From: a virus
Lineage: Duplodnaviria; Caudoviricetes
Length of the DNA stretch: 64,000 nucleotides
Reading direction: 5' to 3' (one strand)
Virus record (IMG/VR): IMGVR_UViG_3300006467_000454
Location: 32,001-96,000 of that record
Every line of letters starts with the position of its first letter. The first letter of the stretch is position 1. The position numbers and the translations under genes are program-made. The notes under the pieces are model-generated. The model was not told where the DNA came from. It saw only the letters and a program-made list of their open reading frames with translations, and ran no database searches. This document shows, piece after piece, positions 27,841-40,131 of the stretch.

Positions 27841-28335
27841 ATGGCAAACAAAAGTAGGCACATTCCTATTTCGGAATATTATTCTATTTTGCAATTAGAA
27901 TATATATCGTTTAGGCTTCGTGAAGCTATTTATCAAAAGAAGTACTCAGAGAAGTACAAACCTTATTGTGAAGGTAAAAAAGAAAAGATTGAAAGTATTG
28001 CATTGCAAAATTGTTTACCTTCAATTTTTAATTCGGAAACCTCAAGAGAAAAATATTTGGGGAAGTTTTTCAATGAATTTGGATTGCCCAATTTTACCTA
28101 TAAGAATGAAGATTCTAAGGAGAAAATGGGTAAGTGGGATAAGTATTATTATTTTTCTCCTGGGACTTCCGTTAAATTTAAGGTAGAAGATAGCAAGGAT
28201 ATCCAAATCGGGACTATCGTTTCTAATTTGATTGAGGAAGAATCAGTTGTTGTAAAAACAATTGAAAAAGAAGAATTCACGTTGGCATATAGCAAAGTTG
28301 CCCGTATGCTCGTGGAAAGTTTGTTTAATTTTTAA
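27841..28335 (+). CDS. Hypothetical protein (SH3-like C-terminus)
   Basis: 164 aa between primase and dUTPase. Confidence 0.5.
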   Translation: MANKSRHIPISEYYSILQLEYISFRLREAIYQKKYSEKYKPYCEGKKEKIESIALQNCLPSIFNSETSREKYLGKFFNEFGLPNFTYKNEDSKEKMGKWDKYYYFSPGTSVKFKVEDSKDIQIGTIVSNLIEEESVVVKTIEKEEFTLAYSKVARMLVESLFNF

Positions 28336-28345
28336 TTTTTGGAAA

Positions 28346-28861
28346 ATGTTAAATGTAAAAATCAAGCCTGAAAGAATCAATTTTCAGAAACCAGTAAAAG
28401 GAAGTAAAGATGCAGCGTGTTGGGATGTTTATGCTTCCAAAATTGAAGAAAAGCCAGATGGGTTGGTGATTGTTTATTTAGGGTTCAGTACTGAAATCCC
28501 TGTTGGCTATAAGGGTGTTATCGTAGCCCGTTCCAATATCACTAAATATGGCTGGTGTATTCCTAATGCTCCTGGACAAATTGATCCAGATTTCCGCAAT
28601 GAGTGGCAAGTTAGATTCCGCAGATTGCCTATGTTCCGTGAAAAAGAATTAGTGGGGAATCCACGTTGTAAAAACGGGGAAGGGGAATTGTATTCCAAAA
28701 CTCAAGATTTCTTAGAGATGCATTCGTTCCCTTATAAGCAAGGTGAAAGGGTTGCCCAAATCTACTTTGAAAAAGAAGAAGAAGTTGTTTGGCAAGAAGT
28801 TAAAGAAACCAATGATACCGAGCGTGGCTTGGGTGGCTTTGAAAGCACTGGGAGATCATAA
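28346..28861 (+). CDS. dut: Trimeric dUTPase with internal insertion
   Basis: Motifs AACWDV, ARSN, GQIDPDFRNE, ERVAQ, RGLGGFESTG. Confidence 0.9.
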   Translation: MLNVKIKPERINFQKPVKGSKDAACWDVYASKIEEKPDGLVIVYLGFSTEIPVGYKGVIVARSNITKYGWCIPNAPGQIDPDFRNEWQVRFRRLPMFREKELVGNPRCKNGEGELYSKTQDFLEMHSFPYKQGERVAQIYFEKEEEVVWQEVKETNDTERGLGGFESTGRS

Positions 28862-28989: not shown

Positions 28990-29964
28990 ATGGGCGTAAG
29001 CGTAAAAGATGTATTGAAAAGAAAATACAAGAAACTGAAAGATGATGAGATCATCGATATGTTATCAACTGAGTTGAAAGAAGAAGAACGTGAAGTTCTT
29101 TTGGAACTTGCTAAGAAAAGGAAAATCATTAATGATATTCCGGAATCTACTGAGGAAGTTGAAGAAATTCCTTATGAAAAACCTGACGCTAAATTGGTGA
29201 AAAAGGCTGTGAAAATTTTTGATGATTTTGCCGAAAATCAGGAAACTGATCTTTACGGTAAGGCAGCGGAGATCATTAAAGATCGTGAAATTTCTGAACT
29301 TTCTAAGCATGAAGTTGAAGCGATTATTGCTTTGAAACCTGCTACAAAACGTAAAAAGGCTCCAGCAAAGGCAAAAACTGAAAAACCTGAAAAAGCGGAG
29401 AAAAGTGAAAAGGCTGCTAAATCCGGAAAGGGAAAAGGCAAGGAGAAAGAAAAGGTTGAAGAGCCTAAAGCTGAAGAAAAAGTAGAAAAGCCTGAAAAAA
29501 CGGAAAAGAAAGAAAAAGCTGTTTCGTTTAAAGCCTTTAAGGATCTTGCCATGAAAGCGGAAAACGTGAACGATTTTTATGAAGCCGTTAAGGAAATGAA
29601 AGATGTTCCTAAGAAAACTGTCGATAAGTTTTATAAGAAGTACGGTCAGGATGGTAAATTGGCGGAGTTTGAAGCCCTTAAAGTTTTCTATGATGAAACT
29701 ATGGAAAAGAAAGAAAAGGCTAAAACAAGCAGCAAGCGTAAGCCATTTGTGGAGCTTGATGAATCTGCTGAGGTTAAAGGTTTGAAACTTGGTTCAAAAG
29801 TTTCTTTCAAAGCTCACCACCTTTCTAAAAAAGCAGGTGAACAAATTAAGGGTAAAGTTACCCGTATCATCATTGCTAATCGTGATAGCAAGGAGTACAT
29901 CAAAATTGAAACCAAAAATGATGGTGAATTCCACAAGAGAGCGAATTCTGTAGAAATATTATAA
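28990..29964 (+). CDS. Lys/Glu-rich protein, possible nucleoid/DNA-binding protein
   Basis: 324 aa, histone-H1-like KPATKRKKAPAKAKTEKPEKAEK linker, SH3/KOW-like C-terminus, own promoter. Confidence 0.55.
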   Translation: MGVSVKDVLKRKYKKLKDDEIIDMLSTELKEEEREVLLELAKKRKIINDIPESTEEVEEIPYEKPDAKLVKKAVKIFDDFAENQETDLYGKAAEIIKDREISELSKHEVEAIIALKPATKRKKAPAKAKTEKPEKAEKSEKAAKSGKGKGKEKEKVEEPKAEEKVEKPEKTEKKEKAVSFKAFKDLAMKAENVNDFYEAVKEMKDVPKKTVDKFYKKYGQDGKLAEFEALKVFYDETMEKKEKAKTSSKRKPFVELDESAEVKGLKLGSKVSFKAHHLSKKAGEQIKGKVTRIIIANRDSKEYIKIETKNDGEFHKRANSVEIL

Positions 29965-29973
29965 AAAGTTTCT

Positions 29974-31035
29974 ATGTATAATAATCGTATTGTCATTGAT
30001 TTAGATGACACAATATCCGTTACATTTGATAGGGACTGGGAAAATTCAACCCCAGTCCTTCCTGTCATTGGAAAAATTAATCAACTGTATGATTTAGGTT
30101 GGGAGATTTGCATTGTTACTGCAAGGGGTCAATTAAGTTGTAAAGGAGATTCAAAAAAAGCCGATGATAAATACCGTACTCAAATTGAAACTTGGCTCAA
30201 GAAACACGGAGTCAAATACACTTCTTTATCATTTGAGAAAGTATTAGCCACATATTATGTTGATGATAAATCATTGTCACCTGAGGATTTCACAAAATTG
30301 AATGTTGTGGGATTACAGGGGGGATTGTCTGGCGCCAAAATTGAAAAGGTGGGGGATAAGGTTTACAAGACACATAAAAACTCTCTTCAGGCTGTTAAAT
30401 GGTATTCCATAATTGAAAACTATGATATTCGTATTCCTAAAATACATAGTATTATTGGGGATACTATTTGCATGGAATATATAGAGGATTGCCCAATAAA
30501 GCAACCCCATTTCCCTAGCCTTACAAAAGCCATTGATATTTTTTCTGGGATTAAGGTGAAAGGGGTTCCGTTTGATAATTATATTGAGCGTATCCATAAG
30601 CATGCGGAATATCATGGTGAGTTTTCTGAGATAGTTGACGAATTGGTTTTACATTCAAAATTTTATGAGGAGTTTTCTTCATTTTGTCATGGGGATTTTT
30701 CTATTGATAACATTTTAATCGATAGGAAAGGTTCCCATTATTTGATTGACCCAATTTATGAAGAAGATTCATGGAGTTCATGGCTTTTGGATGTTTCTAA
30801 ATTGGCTCATTCTTATAGAAGGTATGATAAAGTTGATACCCTTTGGAATATTTATGAGCATTATAGGCATAAGGTAGACTGGAATCATCTTAAACTATTA
30901 GAAATAACTCAATGGATCAGGGTGCTAAAATACCTTAAAGACCAGAGGGAGATAAACAGATTTAGAAACACAATAGACGTTATGATGTATGAATATTTTG
31001 GTAGAAATAGAAAACCTAAAACTAAATGGTTCTAA
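29974..31035 (+). CDS. HAD phosphatase (EcbF/BcbF-like) fused to APH/choline-kinase-like phosphotransferase
   Basis: IVIDLDDTI, VTARG, YYVDDK (HAD); GGLSGA, MEYIE, HGDFSIDNIL, LIDP (kinase). Confidence 0.85.
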   Translation: MYNNRIVIDLDDTISVTFDRDWENSTPVLPVIGKINQLYDLGWEICIVTARGQLSCKGDSKKADDKYRTQIETWLKKHGVKYTSLSFEKVLATYYVDDKSLSPEDFTKLNVVGLQGGLSGAKIEKVGDKVYKTHKNSLQAVKWYSIIENYDIRIPKIHSIIGDTICMEYIEDCPIKQPHFPSLTKAIDIFSGIKVKGVPFDNYIERIHKHAEYHGEFSEIVDELVLHSKFYEEFSSFCHGDFSIDNILIDRKGSHYLIDPIYEEDSWSSWLLDVSKLAHSYRRYDKVDTLWNIYEHYRHKVDWNHLKLLEITQWIRVLKYLKDQREINRFRNTIDVMMYEYFGRNRKPKTKWF

Positions 31036-31426
31036 AATAGGCTTCACTGCAAGCTCTTTTGATTTGATGCATCCTGGACATATCGCAATGTTATCAGAAG
31101 CAAAATCAAAATGTGATTACTTGATAGTGGGGTTGTTGACAGACCCAACAATTTCTAGGTACGGTTCAAAAAATAAGCCTGTCCAAACTACTTTTGAAAG
31201 GTTCATTCAGGCTCAAGCTTTAGGCTGTGTTGATTTCATAATCCCATTTGATACCGAAGAAGATTTGGAGCAAATGTTGAAATTGATAATGCCTGACATT
31301 CGGTTCGTTGGTGAGGAGTATAAAGATAAAGATCACACGGGTAAAAATATCGATGGGATTGAAATCTTTTACAATAAGCGAAAGCATAATTATAGTTCTT
31401 CAGAATTAAGGGGGAGGTTAAAATGA
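30989..31426 (+). CDS. HxGH cytidylyltransferase (TagD/glycerol-3-phosphate cytidylyltransferase-like)
   Basis: FTASSFDLMHPGH, DYLIVGL, KPV...ER, RKHNYSSSELR. Confidence 0.88.
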   Translation: MNILVEIENLKLNGSKIGFTASSFDLMHPGHIAMLSEAKSKCDYLIVGLLTDPTISRYGSKNKPVQTTFERFIQAQALGCVDFIIPFDTEEDLEQMLKLIMPDIRFVGEEYKDKDHTGKNIDGIEIFYNKRKHNYSSSELRGRLK

Positions 31427-33936
31427 AAAGATATAAAATAGCATATATGGTGCATCGTGGGGATACCAATGGAGGATTCCCACAGCACACGGAAACTATT
31501 ATCCATGCCTTAAAGGAATTAGGGCATCAGGTTAAATTCTTCTATCTGGATTATTGCGTTGGGGATAAAGCTTCTTTTATGGCTAAGAAAGTAGAACTTT
31601 TCCAGAATGGAGAGCTGATGCGTCAGGGTCATGAATTGCAAATCACCAAAGGGATAGGGACAGGGGAGTTTTACGATTCTGAAAAGGGTTGGTTTTGTCC
31701 AGTAACTCCATATAAAAATATGGATGATAAAAAGAAGCTGAAAGCAGAGTTGGAAGAATACGACGCTGTATTTTGGCATACTCCATTTTGGTTCAAACAA
31801 AAGCCTACATTAATGGATACGGATTGGCCAATGTTATTGGATTTGGAAAACCCAGTAAATATTGGAATGGTTCACGATGCTAATTTAAGGGCAAATGGGG
31901 CGTGGCAGTATTTTATAAGCAAATACTTTGACAAAATAATTACAGTCCATTTTGCTTCCTACAATTCAGCCTCAGTGCTACCTGTAAAACGTACCTTGAT
32001 ATTCAATCCTCAGGATTTATCAAAAGTGGATGAATCCCATACTAATTTCAAGAATATCAAGAAAACGGGGAAGATATTCTCACTCCAGAATTGGAAGGGT
32101 AGCAAGCATGTTGATGATTTGATTCGTGCAGTACCTTACTTTTCAAAGAAGGTGAAAACAGTCGTTGCAGGGGATGGGATTGAAGCCCGTTATATGTTTG
32201 GCTCCAAGGAAAAGATGAAACCTCAGTATTATTGTACTAAGGCTAAGGATCCGGATTTGCCTGAAAAATTAGAGGGTAAATTGACAATTGCTGAAAGGGC
32301 TCAGGAAACTGGACGATTTGAAAAATTGTTTTGGCTTGATTCAGATAATCGTGATAAACAAATGTCTGAAGCTGCTTTCTTTATTGATACAGCTTGGTAT
32401 AGTGTGAATAAAGAATTGGGAAGCCACTTTTCTAGAACGTTAATTGAAGCCATGATGGCAGGTTGTGTACCTATCGCCAGAAACTTTGGATTAAGTGATA
32501 ATGCGGAAGGGTTGGGTGAGTTATTTAAATCCAATATAAATTACATAATGATCCCCCATGATGCAACCCCTGCTGAATTCGCTGAAATTGTTAACAATGC
32601 GTTCAAAATGGACAAGAAAGAGTACAAGCGTATTGTAAAAAACAATTATAAACTCTTGGAAAATTTTTGTATGCTTAATGTAGCAAAGCAATATATCAAG
32701 TTAATAGAAGATAAAAAGACTGGATTCTTTGATAAATATGAAGTTGGTGAACCGACTGAGGAGTTTATCAAAAAGGCTGAATTGCAATGGTTCGGTACTG
32801 GAGATAAAAGGACTTTTAACTTCAAAAAAGAAGAAAGCATGGTTGAAGAAACCCCAGAGGATAAAAAGCCTAAAAAAGAAAAGGCTGAAAAACCTAAAAA
32901 TGAAGAGGGCAAAAAGGAAAAGAAGTCAAAGTCCCCAAAACCAAAAGGGAAATGTGAGTTCACCCCTAATGAGAATTTCAAATATTATTTCTATTGGATT
33001 AGTGAGCGAATGAAAATATTCTGGGAACGGAATAAGGGTGAGGAAGCTCCTTGGACTGAGGATAAGATTTTGAATGATCATAAATTTACCAACGTTTATC
33101 GCTGCTTGGATCGTACAAGCCAATATTTGATAAAGCATATTATCAACGATACGAAGAAACGTTCCAAAGAAGAATTGTTTTGGAGAATATTATTATTCAA
33201 ACATTTCAATTCTCCTGATACTTGGATAGCCTTAGAAAAGAAATTCGGGGATATTACCTTAGAAACTAAGGTGAAGAAAATTATTAAGTTCCTTGAAAAG
33301 TACAAGAATGAAGGGAATACCATTTACAGTAATGCTTATATGATGACAGCTTCCTTTATGAAGAAGCCAGAATTCATGAAAAAGTATAAAATGGGGGATT
33401 CAAGGAGTAAGCATGAAGCCTATCTTAAAATGCTTTGGAATGTCTTTATTGAGGAAGGGCTTGCAAAGAAAATTATTAAAAGTAAATCTTTGGAAGAGGT
33501 ACAAGGTAAATTTAAGGAGGTTATTACTATTGGTGATTTCTTAGCGATGCAATATACCATTGATATCAATTACAGTAAGTTGATTGATTTTAGTGAAAAC
33601 GATTTTATCGTTGCAGGTCCTGGGGCTATACGTGGAATTGACCGTACATTCGATATTGAGAGTGCTCCAGATTATCAAAAGATCATCAAGTGGGTTCACA
33701 AGAACTTTGATAAGCTGGCTAACGAATACGGGTATAAATTTAAGCCCCTCCCAAAACGTGCCTTGACTTTAATTGATTTGCAGAATTGCTTCTGTGAAAC
33801 GGATAAATATTTGAGAGGGCGTGGTATCGATAATCCTAAAAAGGAAGTCGGTGGAAAACGCATCAAACAAGTATTCACTCAAAACACAGATAAAATTGAA
33901 TATGTACTTCCCGAGAAGTGGGAAATAAAATTGTAA
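31423..33936 (+). CDS. GT-B glycosyltransferase fused to 5hmdU-DNA-kinase helical domain (aGPT-Pplase1/HMUDK_hel-like)
   Basis: aa1-465: NGG..H...LKELGH, K.SKHVD, AGDG, FSRTLIEAMMAGCVPI; aa~510-837: YWISER..I....APWTEDKIL..HKFTNVYR..DR.SQ, LLFKHFN, YSNAY, IGDFLA.QY..D, AGPGA.RG, DLQNCFCETDKY.R. Confidence 0.85.
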   Translation: MKRYKIAYMVHRGDTNGGFPQHTETIIHALKELGHQVKFFYLDYCVGDKASFMAKKVELFQNGELMRQGHELQITKGIGTGEFYDSEKGWFCPVTPYKNMDDKKKLKAELEEYDAVFWHTPFWFKQKPTLMDTDWPMLLDLENPVNIGMVHDANLRANGAWQYFISKYFDKIITVHFASYNSASVLPVKRTLIFNPQDLSKVDESHTNFKNIKKTGKIFSLQNWKGSKHVDDLIRAVPYFSKKVKTVVAGDGIEARYMFGSKEKMKPQYYCTKAKDPDLPEKLEGKLTIAERAQETGRFEKLFWLDSDNRDKQMSEAAFFIDTAWYSVNKELGSHFSRTLIEAMMAGCVPIARNFGLSDNAEGLGELFKSNINYIMIPHDATPAEFAEIVNNAFKMDKKEYKRIVKNNYKLLENFCMLNVAKQYIKLIEDKKTGFFDKYEVGEPTEEFIKKAELQWFGTGDKRTFNFKKEESMVEETPEDKKPKKEKAEKPKNEEGKKEKKSKSPKPKGKCEFTPNENFKYYFYWISERMKIFWERNKGEEAPWTEDKILNDHKFTNVYRCLDRTSQYLIKHIINDTKKRSKEELFWRILLFKHFNSPDTWIALEKKFGDITLETKVKKIIKFLEKYKNEGNTIYSNAYMMTASFMKKPEFMKKYKMGDSRSKHEAYLKMLWNVFIEEGLAKKIIKSKSLEEVQGKFKEVITIGDFLAMQYTIDINYSKLIDFSENDFIVAGPGAIRGIDRTFDIESAPDYQKIIKWVHKNFDKLANEYGYKFKPLPKRALTLIDLQNCFCETDKYLRGRGIDNPKKEVGGKRIKQVFTQNTDKIEYVLPEKWEIKL

Positions 33937-33940
33937 TTAT

Positions 33941-34966
33941 ATGTATATTTTTGAAAACTTGAATTCGGCTTTAGTTGGGATGTGTTCTAACTTACTGGAG
34001 TATGGGGAAACAAGGGAAACAAGGGGGCATCATTGCGTTGAGATACCTTATCCCGTTTTAATCTGTATTAACAACCCGACTGACAGGTATGTGACTATCC
34101 CTGAAAGAAAATGGAATAAGGTCTTGCCGTTTGCGGAAAGCCTTTGGTTGGCGTTGGGGTTAAATGATTTGGATGAATTGCCAGGAAATTATGTGAAGAA
34201 TTTGTATAATTTTTCAGATAATGGTAGAACGTGGCGTGCAGGTTATGGTCCGAGAATGAGATACTTTAGTGGGCATGGTTCTGATTATGATATTAGTAAA
34301 CGTGATGAGGCTAAAGTTTACTCTGGGGATATTAACCATACTGACCAGTTGAAGTTTGTTATTGATACTTTAAATAGGGATATCAATAGCCGACAAGCTA
34401 TCATTACAATCCATGACCCTGCAAAGGATGACTTTGATCGTGATGGTGGGCTAAAGGTTACAAAAGACCAACCTTGCACACGTAGCATCCATTTCCAAGT
34501 AAATACCAAGGGGGAATTGGATTGCATCGTTGACATCCGTTCTAACGATGTTTTGTGGGGATTCTCAGCGGTTAACGTCATTAACTTTGCTATCATGCAA
34601 GAATACGTTGCTAATATTATGGGGCTGCCTATTGGTAAATATTATCATTTTGCCCATAATTTCCATTATTATGAAGATTTTGAAAGTAGAGTAGTTGAGC
34701 TGAGAGATGTTGGGTTTTCTGACCCTAATTACCATAAAGAAAGTGTTAAGTTCCAATATAAGGATCCGATTGGGGACCTTGAGAACTTTGATTTCCTATT
34801 GGATTTATTGTTTGATTATGAGAAATCACTTCGTGAGGGATATTCGTTGCCTTGTGATTTAGGTAATGATATGTTCAATGACTGGGCTAAAGTGTTCTAT
34901 AACTATTGGACTAAGCAGCCAGTGTATTTTGAAAATCCACATTTAAATAAATTGTTTAATATTTAA
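33941..34966 (+). CDS. Thymidylate synthase homologue, probable dUMP hydroxymethylase
   Basis: AGYGPR, SRQA, KDQPCT (catalytic Cys), RSNDVLWGFSAVN (Asn = uracil-type), HNFHYY; lacks a canonical ThyA C-terminal end. Confidence 0.8.
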   Translation: MYIFENLNSALVGMCSNLLEYGETRETRGHHCVEIPYPVLICINNPTDRYVTIPERKWNKVLPFAESLWLALGLNDLDELPGNYVKNLYNFSDNGRTWRAGYGPRMRYFSGHGSDYDISKRDEAKVYSGDINHTDQLKFVIDTLNRDINSRQAIITIHDPAKDDFDRDGGLKVTKDQPCTRSIHFQVNTKGELDCIVDIRSNDVLWGFSAVNVINFAIMQEYVANIMGLPIGKYYHFAHNFHYYEDFESRVVELRDVGFSDPNYHKESVKFQYKDPIGDLENFDFLLDLLFDYEKSLREGYSLPCDLGNDMFNDWAKVFYNYWTKQPVYFENPHLNKLFNI

Positions 34967-34973
34967 TTCGTAA

Positions 34974-35645
34974 ATGGCATTAAATGACTATCGATATAAG
35001 TATATTTATGCAACATTTAATTTAGTGAATGGTAAATTTTATGTCGGTAGCCATATGTCCAATAAAGATCCTAATTCTGATAAATACCTTGGCTCTGGTG
35101 TTAGGATTAAATACGCCATAAGGAAATATGGTAGGGTTAATTTCAAAAGGGAAATTATTGAATTTTACCACGGAGAAGATATTGAAGAATTTAGGGATTT
35201 AGAAACTTATTGGATAAATTCTTTAGAAGCCGTAACATTAGGGTATAATCTAAAAGAATCAGCTAATTCCCCTTATACTGAAGGTAAAAGTGTTGGGGAT
35301 AAAATAGCAAAAACATTGAGGGGTGTCCCAAAATCAGAATCCCATAAACGGAACCTTAGTAAAAGTAAACAAGGTTCAAAGCCATGGAATTTAGGGGTCC
35401 CATGTAGGGAAGAAGTGAAAAAGAAGATACAAGCCACTTCTAAGAAAAGGGTCATCCCTAGGGAACATATTGAGAAAATGCATAAAGCTGTTACAGGTGT
35501 TCCGAAGAGTAAAAGGTTCAAGAAAATTATATCTGATTCTTGGAAGAATAGGGAGGAAATAAAATGCCCTCATTGTGGGTTAAAAAGTAAAAGTTTAGGT
35601 AACATGAATCGTTACCATTTTAATAATTGTAAATCAAAATCGTAA
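34974..35645 (+). CDS. Free-standing GIY-YIG homing endonuclease (Seg-like, NUMOD3-type repeats)
   Basis: YIY.T.N..NGKFYVGSH...YLGSG...KYG..NF.REI...E; GYN; repeated GVPKS..HK..S; terminal CPHC. Confidence 0.88.
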   Translation: MALNDYRYKYIYATFNLVNGKFYVGSHMSNKDPNSDKYLGSGVRIKYAIRKYGRVNFKREIIEFYHGEDIEEFRDLETYWINSLEAVTLGYNLKESANSPYTEGKSVGDKIAKTLRGVPKSESHKRNLSKSKQGSKPWNLGVPCREEVKKKIQATSKKRVIPREHIEKMHKAVTGVPKSKRFKKIISDSWKNREEIKCPHCGLKSKSLGNMNRYHFNNCKSKS

Positions 35646-35649
35646 AATT

Positions 35650-36165
35650 ATGCTAAGCATTGGTTATTATCGTAAAATGAAAAGGGTTAAAAGGCTCGGG
35701 CTATCATTCATCCATAGGGAGTATTCGCTATTGGAGCACCAATATATGGTAGGTATGTTGTTTAAGTATTTTGCATCAAAGGAAAATGTCCCTTATGATA
35801 TTCACGTTTGGGATTTAGTTCTTCACCACGATGCATTGGAAGTCGAAACAACAGATTTAATTTCAACCGTGAAAAAACTTTCCAAGAAAACTCAAGAAGC
35901 TTGGGAAGTCATTGAGGAGGAAGTTATCAACAAACATTTCCAGTTAGAAAAATACAGTGATAAAAGATTTAAGGAAGGCATGACACCCCTCCAGCATAAG
36001 CTGTTTAAAGCTTGTGATTATCTTGACTTGTGGATTTTTATCAAGGAAGAAGTAGCCATCGGAAACAAATCAAAAGATATTTTGGAAATCCTAGGGCGGT
36101 GTGACGAAATGATAGGCACGGATTTCCTACATATCCGTAAATTCATGGAGGGATTTAAATGCTAA
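35650..36165 (+). CDS. HD-domain 5'-deoxynucleotidase (YfbR-like)
   Basis: MKRVKR...YSLLEH...LHHDALE...TDL..VK...KACD. Confidence 0.8.
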   Translation: MLSIGYYRKMKRVKRLGLSFIHREYSLLEHQYMVGMLFKYFASKENVPYDIHVWDLVLHHDALEVETTDLISTVKKLSKKTQEAWEVIEEEVINKHFQLEKYSDKRFKEGMTPLQHKLFKACDYLDLWIFIKEEVAIGNKSKDILEILGRCDEMIGTDFLHIRKFMEGFKC

Positions 36166-36788
36166 ATGTATGGGTATATTTAGGAGTAAATGGGTCTGGA
36201 AAAGACTTTCAGGCTAAATTGAAATCTGAGGAGTTAAAGGTTTTACCTTTTGATTTTAGTGATGGAGTTCGGGAATACACGTTTGCTTTCCTGGGTTGGA
36301 CTCCCCCCAATAAAGATGATTATGAGGCTTGGAAATCAGGTCAATCAACTATGTTTATGCCAGAGGGGCTGAGTGCCTATTCCATAAAAATGCGCAAGGG
36401 GCGTGAGTTCTTAGATAATGTTGGCAAAAAGATGAGGGATTTTGACCCTGATTTTTGGGCAAAACATACCGTAAGTAAAGCCACTGAATATTATCAACAG
36501 GGGGTGGAGAATATTATCTTTTCTTCTTGTAGGTATATAAATGAAGCAAAAGCAATTTTAGATTTCGTTTATAGTGCAGGTGGGGATGATGCAAATGTTA
36601 ATTTCATATTCTGTGATTACCAATCAACGAAATATGATGACACTTACAGGGAATATCAAGAATTAGCCTTAATCCTTAGAGATATGGGGGCTGGTGACCT
36701 TGAGAAAGTTAACGAAAAAATTTATTATTTAATTGCCAATTATGAAAAAGTTGCTCAAGTTTTTAGAAGCGAATCGGATAGAGCATAA
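36159..36788 (+). CDS. Deoxynucleoside monophosphate kinase
   Basis: P-loop GVNGSGKD, FSDGVR, GREFL..VG..R..DPDFW, CRYINE (T4 gp1-like). Confidence 0.8.
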   Translation: MLNVWVYLGVNGSGKDFQAKLKSEELKVLPFDFSDGVREYTFAFLGWTPPNKDDYEAWKSGQSTMFMPEGLSAYSIKMRKGREFLDNVGKKMRDFDPDFWAKHTVSKATEYYQQGVENIIFSSCRYINEAKAILDFVYSAGGDDANVNFIFCDYQSTKYDDTYREYQELALILRDMGAGDLEKVNEKIYYLIANYEKVAQVFRSESDRA

Positions 36789-39700
36789 ACAGCATAACAA
36801 GAAGATGGTGATTATCGGTGGGGAGAAATTTGAACTGATAAAACCAGACGATGATGGGAAGATTTTCACCCCTTCTTTTACACTGATGGCTGATTCAACT
36901 AAGGCTGAAAATTATGTGTTTTCATTTGGTGGCAATTACTACTTTACACCCGAAGGCACGGAAGATGACCCCAAGCTTAACAACCTACGCTATTACGGGA
37001 AATGTTCTGAAAAACAAAAGAATAAATCCTTCTTAGGTGTTAGGGGTGGATTTGAGATCCTTAACGGCTCAGGGCAATATAAAGATTGGGTTAAGAAAGC
37101 TAAATTTTTAGGTCTTGAAACTTTAGGTATTTGTGAGAAAAATACTTTGGCAGGTGCCTTGAAGTTCCAGAGTGCCTGTAAAAGTGGTGGAATTGAATCT
37201 ATTATTGGTGAAACTGTTACTGTATTCCGGAAATCAGAAGATTTAAGGTATGATTTGAAATTATACGTTAAAAATGAAAAGGGGTATCGGAATCTCTTAC
37301 TTATAAATAAAAAAATCAATGTTGATGAATTGTCATTTATAAAGGAAGAGGATCTATTCAAAATGTTGGATGGGTTATACATTGTCCTTGACCCAAAATC
37401 ATTGCCATATGAAAAGGTATTCCCAATTGATCTTGATAATGATGTGTTTTACCAAATTGACCCTGTAATATGGGAAGACAATGAAGTTGATAAAACTTAT
37501 TTGGAAAACCTAAAGCAATATGTGCTTGAAAAAAGATTTAAGCCAATTGCAATTTGGGATGCTTTCTATTTAGAAAAGGATCATAATCACATCAAACAAA
37601 TCCTAAACGGGATAGCGAAGAAATTCGAATATATTTCAAAGGATCAATGGTTCAAGACTTGGGGGGAATATGAAAGCGGTTGCTCAGATATTTTCTCTGA
37701 AGAGCGTATTGGGATACTGAAGAAAGCCAAGAAGAATTTGGAATTAGTTGCGAGCGTTTGCAAGAATTTTAATATACCTACTGGGGAACGTCATTTGCCT
37801 AAATACAAAATGACCAAAAAAGAGGCTAAAAAGTATAAAACAAATAAGGATCTTTTCTGGGGATTGGTTGAAGATGGGTTGAAGCGTAAAACCCCAAAAG
37901 GTAAAAAGAAAGAATACCTAAAGCGTGTTGAAATAGAATGGGATGTTATTGAATATGGGGATGTAATGGATTATTTCTTAATTCTATATGATATCATCAA
38001 GTGGTGCCGCAAAAAGAATATACTCGTGGGTATTGGTCGTGGTTCTGCTGGAGGTTCTTTAGTATCTTATCTATTGGATATTACTCAGCTTGACCCAATT
38101 GAATACGGGTTACTTTTTGAGAGATTTTTGAATAAAGGTCGTATTGAAAAGTCACTACCCGATATTGATGTGGATTTCCCTGCTAAGAAACGTGGGCTGA
38201 TTAAAGCCTATATTGAGAAACGATACGGGCATGATCAGGTTTGTTCAGTAGGCACTTACACCGCATTACAGTTGAGGGCTGCCTTAAAGGATATTGCGAG
38301 GCAGTATTCAATCCCGTTTGATGAAACAAATAGGGTTACTGCTTATCTTGAAGGTTGCAAATCACTGGAAGATATTTTCCGGAAATCAGCTTCGGATAAA
38401 TTTGTTTACACTTTTGTTAGCAAATATCCGTATGTGATAAACGATATCCCATTAGTTTTAGGGCAACCAAAAGCTAAATCAATCCACGCTTGTGCCATGA
38501 TGGTATTCCCGAAAGAGAAAACCATGTACGAGTGGGCTCCTGTTAGGGAACAGGACGGACAAATAGTAAGTGAGTGGGAAGGTAATGAGTTGGATGAAGC
38601 AGGATTCCTTAAAGAGGATATTTTGGGGGTTAAACAGTTAGATAAATATGAGGATATTTTGGAATCCATCAAAAAGGTGGAAGGCAAAGAAATTGACTTG
38701 TATTCATTAAAGCTTAATCACGATAAATGCTATAAGTATTTCCAGAAGGGGTGGAATGGTGATGTATTCCACTTTGGTAGTCGGGGATTGACAGGGTACT
38801 GTAAGGAATTACTCCCTGAAGATATTAATGATTTGATTGCTGGAATCTCCCTTTATCGTCCTGGAGCGATGGAGAATAACTTCCATAACGAATATGTCCT
38901 ACGTAAAAATGGGGATCGTGAGGTAGAATATTTTGTCGGTTCTGAGGAAATCCTTAAAGATACTTATGGGGTATTTGTTTATCAGGAGCAGATTATGAAG
39001 CTTTGTCAGGTTTTAGGTGGATTATCCCTTGTAGAAGCGGATGATGTACGTAAAGCGATGGTAAAGAAAAAGTATGAAGCACTCCAGCAGTATAAAGTTA
39101 GATTTATCCCACATTATGTGAAAGAATTTGGGGTATCTAAACAATATGCCGAAGGAGTTTGGGAGGCTATTGATAAAGCTGCAACTTATCTGTTCAATAA
39201 ATCCCATGCATCTGCTTATTCCATTACAGGATACTGGGGGCAATACCTCAAAGTATTTTACCCTGTACACTATTGGAAAACAGCTATTAATTATGCTGAT
39301 GAAGATCAATTCCCTCATTACATTAATGAAGTCCATAAAACAGGTGATATAGAAATCAAGCCACCTGATATAAATGAATCCGGAGAAGGGGTAACTGCTG
39401 ATTTCAAAGCAAATAAAATTTACTGGTCAATAGGTGGTATCAAAAATGTTGGGGGAACAGCCCTTCATCAAATAATTGAAGACCGAAAAAAGAGCGGTGA
39501 ATACTTTGATTTGAAGGAATTCTATTCACGCCATAAGTTTACTGGGACTAAGGTAAACAAGCGTACAATCGAATGCTTAATTTTATCTGGTGCTTTTGAT
39601 CAGGTTTGTGATATTGATTTACCTAAAAGGAGATTTAAATTAATTGAAGAATTTAGGGAGATTGGTAAGATCAAAATTGATGATGAGAAAGATCTTTTCT

Positions 39701-40131
39701 CTGCCAATAAATCTATGTTAAAAGATAACCAATGGTGGGTATTCCAACAGAAGTTGTTATCCGGAATTGCTTATTTTGATTATAAGGATCTTTGTGGTAG
39801 GTTAGAAGTGGAAGGGTATAAATTCATGAACCCAGAAAAGTTCATGAGGGAAAACTCAGCTGGCAAAGATGCCAGAATTGGGGGGTACATTTCCGAAATT
39901 AAGCTACGTAAGAATCAGAAAGGGCAATGGGCTTCCATAGTTCTGGAAAGTAATTACGAATTCATTAGGGTTCAGATTTGGCCAGAGCAATTCTCTAGGT
40001 TAGAGGGTAGGATTCACTCTAAATCTAAGGCTGTTATTGTTTTAAATGGCAAAATTAAGTTTGATGAAAAGTATTCTAAGGAAAATAATCTACAAACCAC
40101 CGAAGATACTGAATTCTTAGTTTTAGAATAG
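36742..40131 (+). CDS. dnaE: DNA polymerase III alpha subunit (family C)
   Basis: GRGSAGGSLVSYLL, LLFERFLN, PDIDVDF, KEDILG, YRPG, VYQEQIM, FNKSHA, C-terminal OB; degenerate PHP. Confidence 0.95.
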   Translation: MKKLLKFLEANRIEHKQHNKKMVIIGGEKFELIKPDDDGKIFTPSFTLMADSTKAENYVFSFGGNYYFTPEGTEDDPKLNNLRYYGKCSEKQKNKSFLGVRGGFEILNGSGQYKDWVKKAKFLGLETLGICEKNTLAGALKFQSACKSGGIESIIGETVTVFRKSEDLRYDLKLYVKNEKGYRNLLLINKKINVDELSFIKEEDLFKMLDGLYIVLDPKSLPYEKVFPIDLDNDVFYQIDPVIWEDNEVDKTYLENLKQYVLEKRFKPIAIWDAFYLEKDHNHIKQILNGIAKKFEYISKDQWFKTWGEYESGCSDIFSEERIGILKKAKKNLELVASVCKNFNIPTGERHLPKYKMTKKEAKKYKTNKDLFWGLVEDGLKRKTPKGKKKEYLKRVEIEWDVIEYGDVMDYFLILYDIIKWCRKKNILVGIGRGSAGGSLVSYLLDITQLDPIEYGLLFERFLNKGRIEKSLPDIDVDFPAKKRGLIKAYIEKRYGHDQVCSVGTYTALQLRAALKDIARQYSIPFDETNRVTAYLEGCKSLEDIFRKSASDKFVYTFVSKYPYVINDIPLVLGQPKAKSIHACAMMVFPKEKTMYEWAPVREQDGQIVSEWEGNELDEAGFLKEDILGVKQLDKYEDILESIKKVEGKEIDLYSLKLNHDKCYKYFQKGWNGDVFHFGSRGLTGYCKELLPEDINDLIAGISLYRPGAMENNFHNEYVLRKNGDREVEYFVGSEEILKDTYGVFVYQEQIMKLCQVLGGLSLVEADDVRKAMVKKKYEALQQYKVRFIPHYVKEFGVSKQYAEGVWEAIDKAATYLFNKSHASAYSITGYWGQYLKVFYPVHYWKTAINYADEDQFPHYINEVHKTGDIEIKPPDINESGEGVTADFKANKIYWSIGGIKNVGGTALHQIIEDRKKSGEYFDLKEFYSRHKFTGTKVNKRTIECLILSGAFDQVCDIDLPKRRFKLIEEFREIGKIKIDDEKDLFSANKSMLKDNQWWVFQQKLLSGIAYFDYKDLCGRLEVEGYKFMNPEKFMRENSAGKDARIGGYISEIKLRKNQKGQWASIVLESNYEFIRVQIWPEQFSRLEGRIHSKSKAVIVLNGKIKFDEKYSKENNLQTTEDTEFLVLE

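Follow-up and report, generated by a model that had tools for sequence, protein, structure and literature searches.

The genes at 29974–36788 of a stretch of Caudoviricetes DNA (IMG/VR record IMGVR_UViG_3300006467_000454) are read here as a two-stage pathway of thymine hypermodification, in which 5-hydroxymethyl-2'-deoxyuridine (5hmdU) would enter the DNA during replication and a sugar activated by phage-encoded enzymes would then be attached to it. We assign this reading a probability of about 0.62. The analysed stretch, referred to below as the window, comprises 64,000 nucleotides (bases 32001–96000 of a virus record that is complete at 108,320 bp and has direct terminal repeats), and its + strand carries nearly all of the called open reading frames (ORFs). 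The pathway genes encode, in order, a HAD phosphatase fused to an APH-like kinase, a nucleotidyltransferase of the HxGH cytidylyltransferase fold, a GT-B glycosyltransferase (GT) fused to an HMUDK_hel domain, a thymidylate synthase (TS) homologue, an HD-domain nucleotidase, and a deoxynucleoside monophosphate (dNMP) kinase. A first-pass annotation made from the sequence had described the same contiguous run, and all the genes it named are present on the + strand, including the flanking dUTPase (28262–28861) and DnaE (36733–40131), both of which gave family matches; a GIY-YIG homing endonuclease gene within the run had been overlooked. The domain identities, the intact catalytic motifs, the dUMP-type signature of the TS homologue, and the conserved linkage of the genes come from analysis of sequences and structures.

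From these data we infer all the enzymatic activities, which sugar and which nucleotide are involved, the atom of attachment, and the flipping of the base by HMUDK_hel. In the first stage, the dUTPase would supply dUMP and the TS homologue would convert it to 5hmdUMP; the dNMP kinase would start the conversion of 5hmdUMP to the triphosphate, the HD nucleotidase would remove the competing dTMP, and the DnaE polymerase would build DNA with 5hmdU replacing T. In the second stage, the APH-like kinase would add a phosphate to a host sugar phosphate at its anomeric carbon, the HAD phosphatase fused to it would strip the distal phosphate, and the HldC-like nucleotidyltransferase would form a nucleoside diphosphate sugar (NDP-sugar), with heptose as the likeliest sugar. 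After replication, the GT4-type GT-B domain would put the sugar on the 5-CH2OH of 5hmdU, while the attached HMUDK_hel domain would bind DNA and flip the modified base into reach. The product would be O-glycosyl-5-hydroxymethyluracil, a base-J-like nucleobase with a phage-specified sugar that could shield the DNA from restriction. Transfer of the donor group to 5hmdU in DNA by the GT fusion, already proposed in the first-pass annotation, is retained as the most likely role of this protein.

The dUMP hydroxymethylase homologue and the nucleotide pool

The TS homologue (341 aa; 33941–34966, +; Thymidylat_synt 2e-20) has the MilA hydroxymethylase as its top PDB match (2e-17), against 2e-8 at best for true thymidylate synthases. 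Its best matches in the phage collection are enzymes of 5hmdU phages (SPO1-like Goe10, SP8, M6/YuA/PaMx11, and ViI; 1e-25 to 1e-33), and T4-type td reaches only 7e-6. The catalytic Cys, within KDQPC, is the equivalent of E. coli C146 and aligns with the PCH of canonical TS; an Asp occupies the position of E. coli ThyA L143 (-3 from the Cys), D169 is retained in RSND, and E. coli N177 (PFN) has its counterpart in the Asn of WGFSAVN. PaMx11 gp51, Goe10 gp29, and ViI orf66 have the same Asn and share with the window protein a one-residue insertion within WGFSAVN, whereas the dCMP-type homologues of Serratia phage LC53, locus L010, and phage AB434P2 have Asp at the N177 position. According to published work, L143D/E is the mark of a hydroxymethylase (the acidic residue admits water), N177 indicates dUMP rather than dCMP as the substrate, and D169N marks a 5-hydroxylase (PMC13326640). 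Because residues 143, 169, and 177 follow this rule, the assignment of the window protein as a predicted dUMP hydroxymethylase is supported. In a small maximum-likelihood tree it grouped with the known dUMP hydroxymethylases PaMx11 gp51, Goe10 gp29, and ViI orf66 (support 91/93), apart from canonical TS and from the Asp-177 homologues. The alignment bears out the uracil-type Asn reported initially.

The HD-domain gene (35650–36165, +; PF12917 3e-15, NF003009 5e-8) encodes a YfbR-like 5'-deoxynucleotidase, and its pairing with the TS gene is also found in PaMx11 and in all relatives. This protein presumably acts as a dTMP/dNMP phosphatase that excludes thymine from DNA. The dNMP kinase (209 aa; 36159–36788, +; phrog_139 4e-13) is T4 gp1-like, with the P-loop GVNGSGKD (GxxGSGKD), and would convert 5hmdUMP to 5hmdUDP. 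It was also considered as a 5hmdU DNA kinase that would otherwise be missing, a candidacy rejected on its likeness to T4 gp1 and on the lack of similarity to the PaMx11 5-HMUDK, other known 5-HMUDKs, or the P-loop domains fused to HMUDK_hel. The dUTPase (199 aa; phrog_135 1.5e-28, TIGR00576 9e-19, Pfam dUTPase 1.4e-11) is predicted to supply dUMP and hold dUTP down, and by analogy with phage 15599 (PMC13458397) it may be active on dTTP too. That the dUTPase, HD nucleotidase, and dNMP kinase form a set for thymine exclusion and 5hmdU supply is supported, in line with the pool-shaping role first suggested for the HD protein and the dUTPase.

Donor genes, the glycosyltransferase fusion, and their genomic context

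The first gene of the run (29974–31035, +) encodes a 353-aa protein with 321 detected relatives, nearly all unnamed and equally long. Residues 4–125 form the HAD domain (TIGR01689 4e-16, PDB 1xpj 3e-12, phrog_1238 1e-19). The APH-like kinase part (residues ~126–353) gives a weak Pfam match (APH 0.002), and for the AlphaFold (AF2) model of the protein (pLDDT 91.2) the nearest folds are APH(2'') and LicA choline kinase (Foldseek probability 1.0). Among 52 aligned homologues, residues D9, D11, T13, T49, K89, D97, and D98 of the HAD domain, which make up its DxDxT nucleophile motif and motifs II to IV, are invariant, as are the ATP-binding K132, the catalytic loop H239-G-D241...N246, and I258-D-P with the metal-binding D259 of the kinase. 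The HAD half aligns with the AfhF-type phosphatase of Serratia phage LC53 (hhalign 99.2%, 39% identity), and the kinase half with the C-terminal kinase domain of the LC53 AfhE-type NTP-transferase/kinase (hhalign 88.6%, catalytic motifs aligned). In the Afh route, the UDP-arabinose pathway of arabinosyl-5-hydroxycytosine phages that has been studied experimentally, a kinase produces a sugar-1,5-bisphosphate, a phosphatase strips the distal phosphate, and a nucleotidyltransferase yields the NDP-sugar (PMC13326640). The window protein is likewise predicted to convert a sugar phosphate, via the sugar-1,n-bisphosphate, to a sugar-1-phosphate.

The nucleotidyltransferase gene (145 aa; 30989–31426, +) overlaps the kinase gene by 47 nt. 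Its product contains an HPGH motif (residues 28–31) and matches PF01467 (CTP_transf_like) at 5e-12 (46.5 bits, cut-off 21). Among NCBIfam models, rfaE_dom_II scored best (9e-24), followed by HldE (2e-20) and TagD (1e-11). The protein falls below the HldC/RfaE domain II equivalog cut-off (84 vs 181.5 bits) and is not a member at that level. PDB matches are ethanolamine-phosphate cytidylyltransferase (ECT; 3e-16) and 5x9q (5e-12), a 'putative cytidylyltransferase' which we take to be HldC. The predicted reaction joins a sugar-1-phosphate and an NTP into an NDP-sugar. The idea of a donor made by the kinase and the nucleotidyltransferase, put forward in the first-pass annotation, is supported; as to its nature, an NDP-sugar is more likely than the CDP-polyol or CDP-aminoalcohol also envisaged there, because rfaE_dom_II outscores TagD and because the HAD/kinase protein is homologous to AfhF and to the C-terminal domain of AfhE. 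Heptose is our best guess for the sugar, and like the nucleotide it is guessed from family resemblance and from one experiment in E. coli.

That experiment concerned the contig 53 phage cluster, subclass III (Pyle, Lund, O'Toole, and Saleh 2024; bioRxiv 10.1101/2023.12.21.572611; Cell Rep 43:114631), whose HAD-APH bifunctional protein, cytidylyltransferase-like protein, and GT4 GT-B were all needed for the formation of 5-heptosyl-hydroxymethylcytosine (5-heptosyl-hmC, 449 u) and its di-heptosyl form (641 u) in E. coli. The transferase, GT53, is listed as a retaining GT4 enzyme with BshA as its top PDB match, and TIGR01689 and TIGR02199 are among the models that define the APH and NTP-transferase categories of that study (10.1101/2023.12.21.572611); both models also match the window proteins. 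As judged through annotation models, the two systems are alike in their three-enzyme logic and domain types and, by prediction for the window, in their 5-hydroxymethylpyrimidine target in DNA. They differ in the origin of the modified base, since the 5-hydroxymethylcytosine (5hmC) of contig 53 is made after replication by a methyltransferase and a TET-like dioxygenase, whereas the 5hmdU of the window would be made before replication by the dUMP hydroxymethylase. They also differ in that the window GT family is always linked with HMUDK_hel, to which it is fused here. The donor part is a known kind of module, and the parts of the pathway are known singly but not in this combination. The claim that the combination was unrecognised among characterised phages has to be narrowed accordingly: the HAD-APH/CTP_transf-like/GT4 trio is known on 5hmC (10.1101/2023.12.21.572611), and what appears to be new is the coupling of a donor/GT module to pre-replicative 5hmdU, a GT family obligately linked with HMUDK_hel and fused to it in this phage only, and, in that domain, a near-invariant Cys-Glu site together with a fold like that of the 5-PmdU amino-acid transferase.

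The Afh route to arabinosyl-5-hydroxycytosine (RB69, DLP3, HY126; PMC13326640) also resembles the window in its use of a TS-family mononucleotide enzyme, an APH-like anomeric kinase, a 1xpj-like HAD protein, a nucleotidyltransferase, and a GT-B enzyme acting on DNA. The fusions are different, with the nucleotidyltransferase joined to the kinase and the HAD protein separate in Afh, but HAD joined to the kinase and the nucleotidyltransferase separate in the window. The nucleotidyltransferase folds differ as well (MurU/LicC-like in Afh, HldC/TagD-like in the window). Furthermore, the window lacks an arabinose-5-phosphate isomerase, its base would be uracil-derived, and its TS homologue keeps D169 and N177.

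The kinase–nucleotidyltransferase pair is widespread in T4-like metagenomic contigs, beside AGT-like GTs, TS homologues, and a UDP-galactopyranose mutase. In two large contigs with a Gp23-type capsid gene (L008, 387 kb, and L009, 316 kb) the pair lies near genes for AGT-like (T4 alpha-glucosyltransferase family), Glyco_transf_25, and sulfotransferase proteins; the AGT-like GTs of L008 were considered as members of the window GT family and rejected (hhalign 36%). The cultured gut Agathobaculum phage AB434P2 (L007, OP172633.1 1-9204) carries the HAD-kinase fusion and a cytidylyltransferase-like protein beside a TS homologue, which is annotated as 'deoxyuridylate hydroxymethyltransferase' yet is of the dCMP type, with Asp in place of N177. 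Next to these genes, two unassigned proteins (328 and 361 aa) are encoded, the first with faint GT-B-like motifs, and the DNA of this phage may carry glycosylated 5hmC. Phosphorylation of a DNA base by the APH-like kinase was rejected as the main reading of this enzyme, as the same kinase–nucleotidyltransferase pair serves AGT-like GTs and dCMP-type TS homologues without HMUDK_hel and its homologues act on sugars.

The GT/HMUDK_hel fusion gene (31423–33936, +) overlaps the nucleotidyltransferase gene by 4 nt, and the overlaps are consistent with a single operon for the donor and GT genes. Its 837-aa product starts with the predicted GT-B (GT4-like) domain (residues 1 to ~490; 31423–32892, +), in which Glycos_transf_1 (PF00534) matches residues 211–410 (3e-7; 30.5 bits vs gathering threshold 26.4). 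It continues through a Lys/Glu-rich linker (32893–32973, +) and ends with HMUDK_hel (residues ~518–837; 32974–33936, +), where PF18723 matches residues 518–798 (288 bits, 1e-86, profile positions 3–273/281). As full-length alignments of the fusion placed HMUDK_hel homologues onto the GT region, the domains were treated separately. All 19 GT homologues (45–64% identity) are stand-alone proteins of 462–488 aa, most with a precomputed PF00534 match. They stop at GTGDKRTFNFK, and the window protein alone runs on through the linker, absent from the stand-alone relatives in the alignment, into HMUDK_hel. The motifs GGxxxH near the N-terminus (G17, G18, H22) and HFSRTLIEAM in the C-terminal donor-binding part (H335, R338, and the conserved Glu, E342) are invariant among the homologues. 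Weak profile matches of the GT were obtained to the PDB glycosyltransferases 6n1x/6d9t and to BshA 5d00 (E 0.03–0.4), the nearest ESM Atlas clusters are viral GT1 and phage DNA alpha-glucosyltransferase, and phmmer with the whole 837-aa protein found no match.

Related viral and metagenomic loci with the window GT family were collected by an alignment query (a query with a single protein found none) and scanned with profiles of five proteins. The kinase/HAD, nucleotidyltransferase, GT, and HMUDK_hel genes occur together within about 8 kb in 15/15 loci with enough flank, and the sole exception to the linkage is a 5.6-kb fragment. About eight gene orders were observed; in L018 the kinase and HAD are separate genes, and two lineages (L028/L030) keep the gene set at only 33% GT identity. 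The TS homologues of the related loci show the KDxxC and Asn-177 signature in 12/12 cases. Given this conserved clustering, the gene arrangement in the window is not due to chance. The GT family appears tied to HMUDK_hel, and their fusion in the window protein suggests, in the Rosetta-stone sense, that they act jointly. Where the kinase–nucleotidyltransferase pair accompanies an Asp-177 TS homologue or an AGT-like GT, no HMUDK_hel was found among the called genes (in AB434P2, in the whole record). Because HMUDK_hel is missing from these dCMP-type and AGT contexts and from SPO1-like Goe10, the domain tracks hypermodification of a uracil-derived base. Goe10 belongs to a group reported with plain 5hmdU, and the notion that HMUDK_hel accompanies 5hmdU as such was rejected on this ground.

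Some of the related modules contain additional genes. Homologous radical SAM-SPASM enzymes with 26% mutual identity are encoded inside the sugar modules of L019 (9396-10364, between the GT and HMUDK_hel genes) and L009 (11005-12084, between the nucleotidyltransferase gene and that of an AGT-like GT), which suggests that some lineages tailor the sugar or the base further. A conserved protein of ~297 aa without a family match lies within the modules of L005 (10952-11842) and L018 (9401-10300), with 40% mutual identity, and is absent from the window.

A possible footprint of the modification was found when palindromes were counted across the whole genome. GC-only palindromic 4-mers are depleted relative to expectation (CGCG 0 vs 41, GGCC 24 vs 204, GCGC 20 vs 65), whereas non-palindromic GC-only 4-mers show observed/expected ratios of 0.65–1.17. 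The surviving GC-only sites have a T at the 5' flank and an A at the 3' flank, i.e., a T beside the site on both strands: 80/81 CCGG sites occur as TCCGGA (expected fraction 0.10; P about 2e-77), the remaining one being TCCGGG, and 18/24 GGCC sites occur as TGGCCA (P about 5e-13). All of the CCWGG sites (60/60) read TCCTGG or CCAGGA. In palindromes with A/T the bias is weak at most (T..A fraction 0.05–0.19 vs 0.06–0.14 expected). TCCGGA has no extended context, is found in all three reading frames, and is about six-fold over-represented. The pattern fits a bulky adduct on T that would shield adjacent base pairs from restriction while T-less sites are purged, and we take it as a hint in this direction. 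The T-flank rule at the surviving CCGG and GGCC sites suggests that T hypermodification could be inferred from sequence alone.

The role of HMUDK_hel and alternative readings

PF18723 is the family formerly called aGPT-Pplase clade 1 (one tblastn match is still annotated so), and PaMx11 gp50 is one of its members. It comprises 3,601 representative sequences at E<=0.001. The GT fusion occurs in the window protein only, among the best 150 of the 3,601 sequences; other HMUDK_hel fusions involve thymidylate-kinase-like P-loop domains, MazG together with MazG_C, or MT-A70 (P0185, P0240, P0209, P0170, P0288, P0160, P0164). Clade 1 proteins accompany all known thymidine-hypermodifying phages, yet they are dispensable in every reconstitution, including the M6 and ViI reactions (PMC8989533), and no function is assigned to them in the cited literature (PMC5889632, PMC8989533). 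A first functional handle on this clade comes from its natural fusion to the GT and from how strictly the two families are linked. SP10 gp186, in which a kinase is fused to HMUDK_hel, is listed as a 5hmdU DNA kinase (PMC5889632 Table 3; PMC8989533 Table 1). In the window protein a GT stands in the kinase's place; therefore, the same hydroxyl would receive a group from either partner. This analogy supports a shared role in which HMUDK_hel would present the 5-CH2OH to a group-transfer enzyme.

The AF2 model of HMUDK_hel (pLDDT 93.6) shows a helix-hairpin-helix (HhH) glycosylase-like fold, a fold of base-flipping proteins. The closest solved fold is the PaMx11 gp46 5-PmdU glycinyltransferase (8z2n; Z 11.2, rmsd 3.9 Å over 224 residues), followed by QNG1 (Z 10.3) and by AGOG, AlkA, OGG1, EndoIII, and MutY (Z 5–9), such Z values not being decisive alone for helical proteins. 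A profile search of HMUDK_hel against PDB sequences gave no match. The 5-PmdU transferase was crystallised with a flipped 5hmdU, and clade 2 (PF18724, ADDT) is a proven amino acid:DNA transferase (PMC13458397). Alignment of HMUDK_hel with PaMx11 gp46 by hhalign (8% probability) puts the Cys of the domain on the catalytic Cys of clade 2 (Pplase2), with Gln/Asn at the metal-binding Glu/Thr positions. The fold and this weak alignment suggest a link between the two clades, and HMUDK_hel is arguably a paralogue of the amino acid:DNA transferase. The reported absence of a P-loop DNA kinase and of an amino acid:DNA transferase must be qualified in this respect. No match was found in the 108-kb genome either to the PaMx11 gp49 5hmdU DNA kinase or to PF18724 (both searches run without a positive control), yet an AADT-like catalytic domain may be present in the form of HMUDK_hel.

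These resemblances raise the question of whether HMUDK_hel is itself a transferase or catalyses a second step. Its Cys would attack C6 of the flipped base to give an exocyclic methylene, and the final adduct would then be something other than a simple O-glycoside for which the GT alone is responsible; a linker might be put in place ahead of glycosylation, for example, or part of the 5hmdU might be turned into another base. Residues C791, E792, and K795 are 99–100% conserved in 155 members (837-aa numbering), as are R529, R560, D563, Q710, and D714. Apart from this conservation, the position of the Cys in the weak profile alignment, and the glycinyltransferase as closest solved fold, catalysis is favoured by phage SP10, which has clade 1 but no clade 2 and yet makes alpha-glutamylthymidine (PMC5889632 Table 3), and by the radical SAM-SPASM enzyme between GT and HMUDK_hel in some related modules. 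The lack of a detectable DNA kinase that would provide a phosphate leaving group, the replacement of the Pplase2 metal-binding residues in the low-confidence alignment, and the dispensability of clade 1 in vitro speak against it, and we regard catalysis by HMUDK_hel as unlikely, albeit the main competitor. Less probable still is the specific form in which a Cys-dependent HMUDK_hel activates 5hmdU in DNA without phosphorylation and is coupled with the fused GT to give a kinase-independent sugar–thymine adduct unlike a plain O-glycoside. If a Cys-dependent role were true, a family of >3,000 representative sequences would gain the function it now lacks.

Alternatively, the GT might glycosylate the mononucleotide (5hmdUMP or 5hmdUTP) ahead of polymerisation, with HMUDK_hel as a nucleotide-binding module, or the GT and donor genes might serve to modify something other than DNA, for instance glycans of the host envelope or proteins of the virion, leaving only 5hmdU in the DNA. 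Several proteins join HMUDK_hel to a MazG nucleotide pyrophosphatase, the domain resembles the mononucleotide enzyme QNG1, and it adjoins TS and HD genes in many phages; the usual acceptors of GT4 enzymes are envelope glycans. We nevertheless consider these targets improbable. Structural or lysis genes do not share the strict linkage that ties the GT to the dUMP hydroxymethylase and HMUDK_hel, and the T-flank footprint suggests a bulky adduct on T in DNA. Moreover, DNA is the substrate of the known clade 2 relatives and of the fused kinases (PMC8989533, PMC13458397), as it was for the closest characterised trio, that of contig 53 (10.1101/2023.12.21.572611). The faintest chance is left to a CDP-polyol or CDP-aminoalcohol donor (CDP-glycerol, CDP-ribitol, CDP-ethanolamine, or CDP-choline) whose phospho-alcohol would form a teichoic-acid-like thymine adduct: the ECT and TagD matches of the nucleotidyltransferase and a kinase fold as close to choline/ethanolamine kinases as to APH agree with it, but the heptose-1-phosphate adenylyltransferase model scores far better than TagD, the conserved fused phosphatase suits a bisphosphate sugar route (Afh, ADP-heptose) and not an aminoalcohol route, the transferase matches Glycos_transf_1 (GT4) with no TagF-type phosphotransferase match reported in the Pfam scan, and the homologous trio yielded heptose adducts experimentally (10.1101/2023.12.21.572611).

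Several observations weigh against glycosylation of 5hmdU in DNA by the GT with HMUDK_hel as its adaptor. The conserved Cys-Glu-x-x-Lys site is unexplained by a pure adaptor role, and the MazG fusions together with the likeness to QNG1 leave room for a role at the nucleotide level. The GT-B/GT4 assignment derives from a modest Pfam score and from motifs, and the contig 53 trio was likened to the window genes indirectly. With the GT domain as query, tblastn found no match in 50,697 phage records, and no cultured phage among them carries this GT. A SIS-type sugar-phosphate isomerase is missing from the genome in a search with valid positive controls; therefore, the starting sugar phosphate must be host-derived. 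Finally, the palindrome footprint is absent from the relative L002, and another cause of the footprint, including the over-representation of TCCGGA, is possible.

Known thymine and cytosine hypermodification systems and the neighbouring genes

Among phages with hypermodified thymine, ViI, M6, PaMx11, PhiW-14, SP10, and SH-Ab 15599 resemble the window in combining a dUMP hydroxymethylase with HD and dUTPase genes and in having a clade 1 gene next to TS (PaMx11 gp50–gp52). Unlike them, the window has no detectable P-loop 5hmdU DNA kinase, no clade 2 transferase (PF18724), and no PLP, radical SAM, or FAD tailoring enzymes. The ViI/M6-type phages activate the base with a phosphate, whereas the window is predicted to activate the donor as an NDP-sugar. 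SP-15, YerA41, and Carin-5 (PMC12686479) carry sugar-bearing thymine derivatives, as predicted for the window phage, and share with it GT and sugar-nucleotide genes near the polymerase, but they use a pentyl-type linker with a phosphate and a UDG-fused PolA, and the window GT is without a homologue in the phage collection.

The predicted product belongs to the same class as base J of kinetoplastids, a sugar O-linked to 5-hydroxymethyluracil in DNA. The routes are different: in base J synthesis, T is oxidised in DNA by JBP1/2 and JGT then uses UDP-glucose, while in the window 5hmdU would be incorporated as a nucleotide and glycosylated by a GT-B/GT4 enzyme, sequence-unrelated to JGT, from a phage-made donor. 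A phage counterpart of base J arising by direct glycosylation of 5hmdU, as predicted here, is not described in the cited literature. Glucosyl-hmC synthesis in T4 (gp42, gp1, alpha-/beta-glucosyltransferases) follows a comparable plan, with a TS-family hydroxymethylase, a dNMP kinase, shaping of the nucleotide pool, and post-replicative GT-B enzymes acting on a flipped base. However, T4 modifies cytosine, relies on host UDP-glucose without donor-synthesis genes, and its GTs flip the base alone, without an HhH partner.

The locus is a compact set of three or four genes which, together with a 5hmdU DNA substrate, is open to testing. If the adduct were confirmed, it would widen the enzymatic tools for DNA glycosylation to thymine positions and account in part for the resistance of some metagenomic phage DNA to restriction or sequencing.

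Megablast of the region against the 50,697 phage records gave no match. Outside this region, the window encodes an ordinary replication/recombination module of a virulent phage (terminase, DnaB, Mre11-like, RecA, NAD ligase, SNF2, RNase H, UvrD, and RNR). An ORF of 324 aa (28990–29964, +) follows the dUTPase gene and lies directly upstream of the donor genes, with no Pfam, PHROG, or NCBIfam match, nothing above 0.77 in the ESM Atlas, an Atlas model of low confidence, and no homologue in the related modules. The GIY-YIG/NUMOD3 homing endonuclease gene (34974–35645, +; NUMOD3 1.5e-5, GIY-YIG 8e-4, phrog_314 2e-30) separates the TS and HD genes and is absent from this position in the relatives L002 and L005; it is a mobile element and not a pathway enzyme. 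The DnaE-type replicative polymerase downstream of the dNMP kinase gene (+ strand) contains PHP, DNA_pol3_alpha (3.5e-64), finger, and HHH_6 domains. Its gene is split into two ORFs (533 aa and about 650 aa) in the relatives L002 (13828-17401) and L004, with a 252-aa ORF between the halves in L002, while L003 has one intact DnaE gene of 1156 aa. The difference resembles an insertion polymorphism of a mobile element within this gene.

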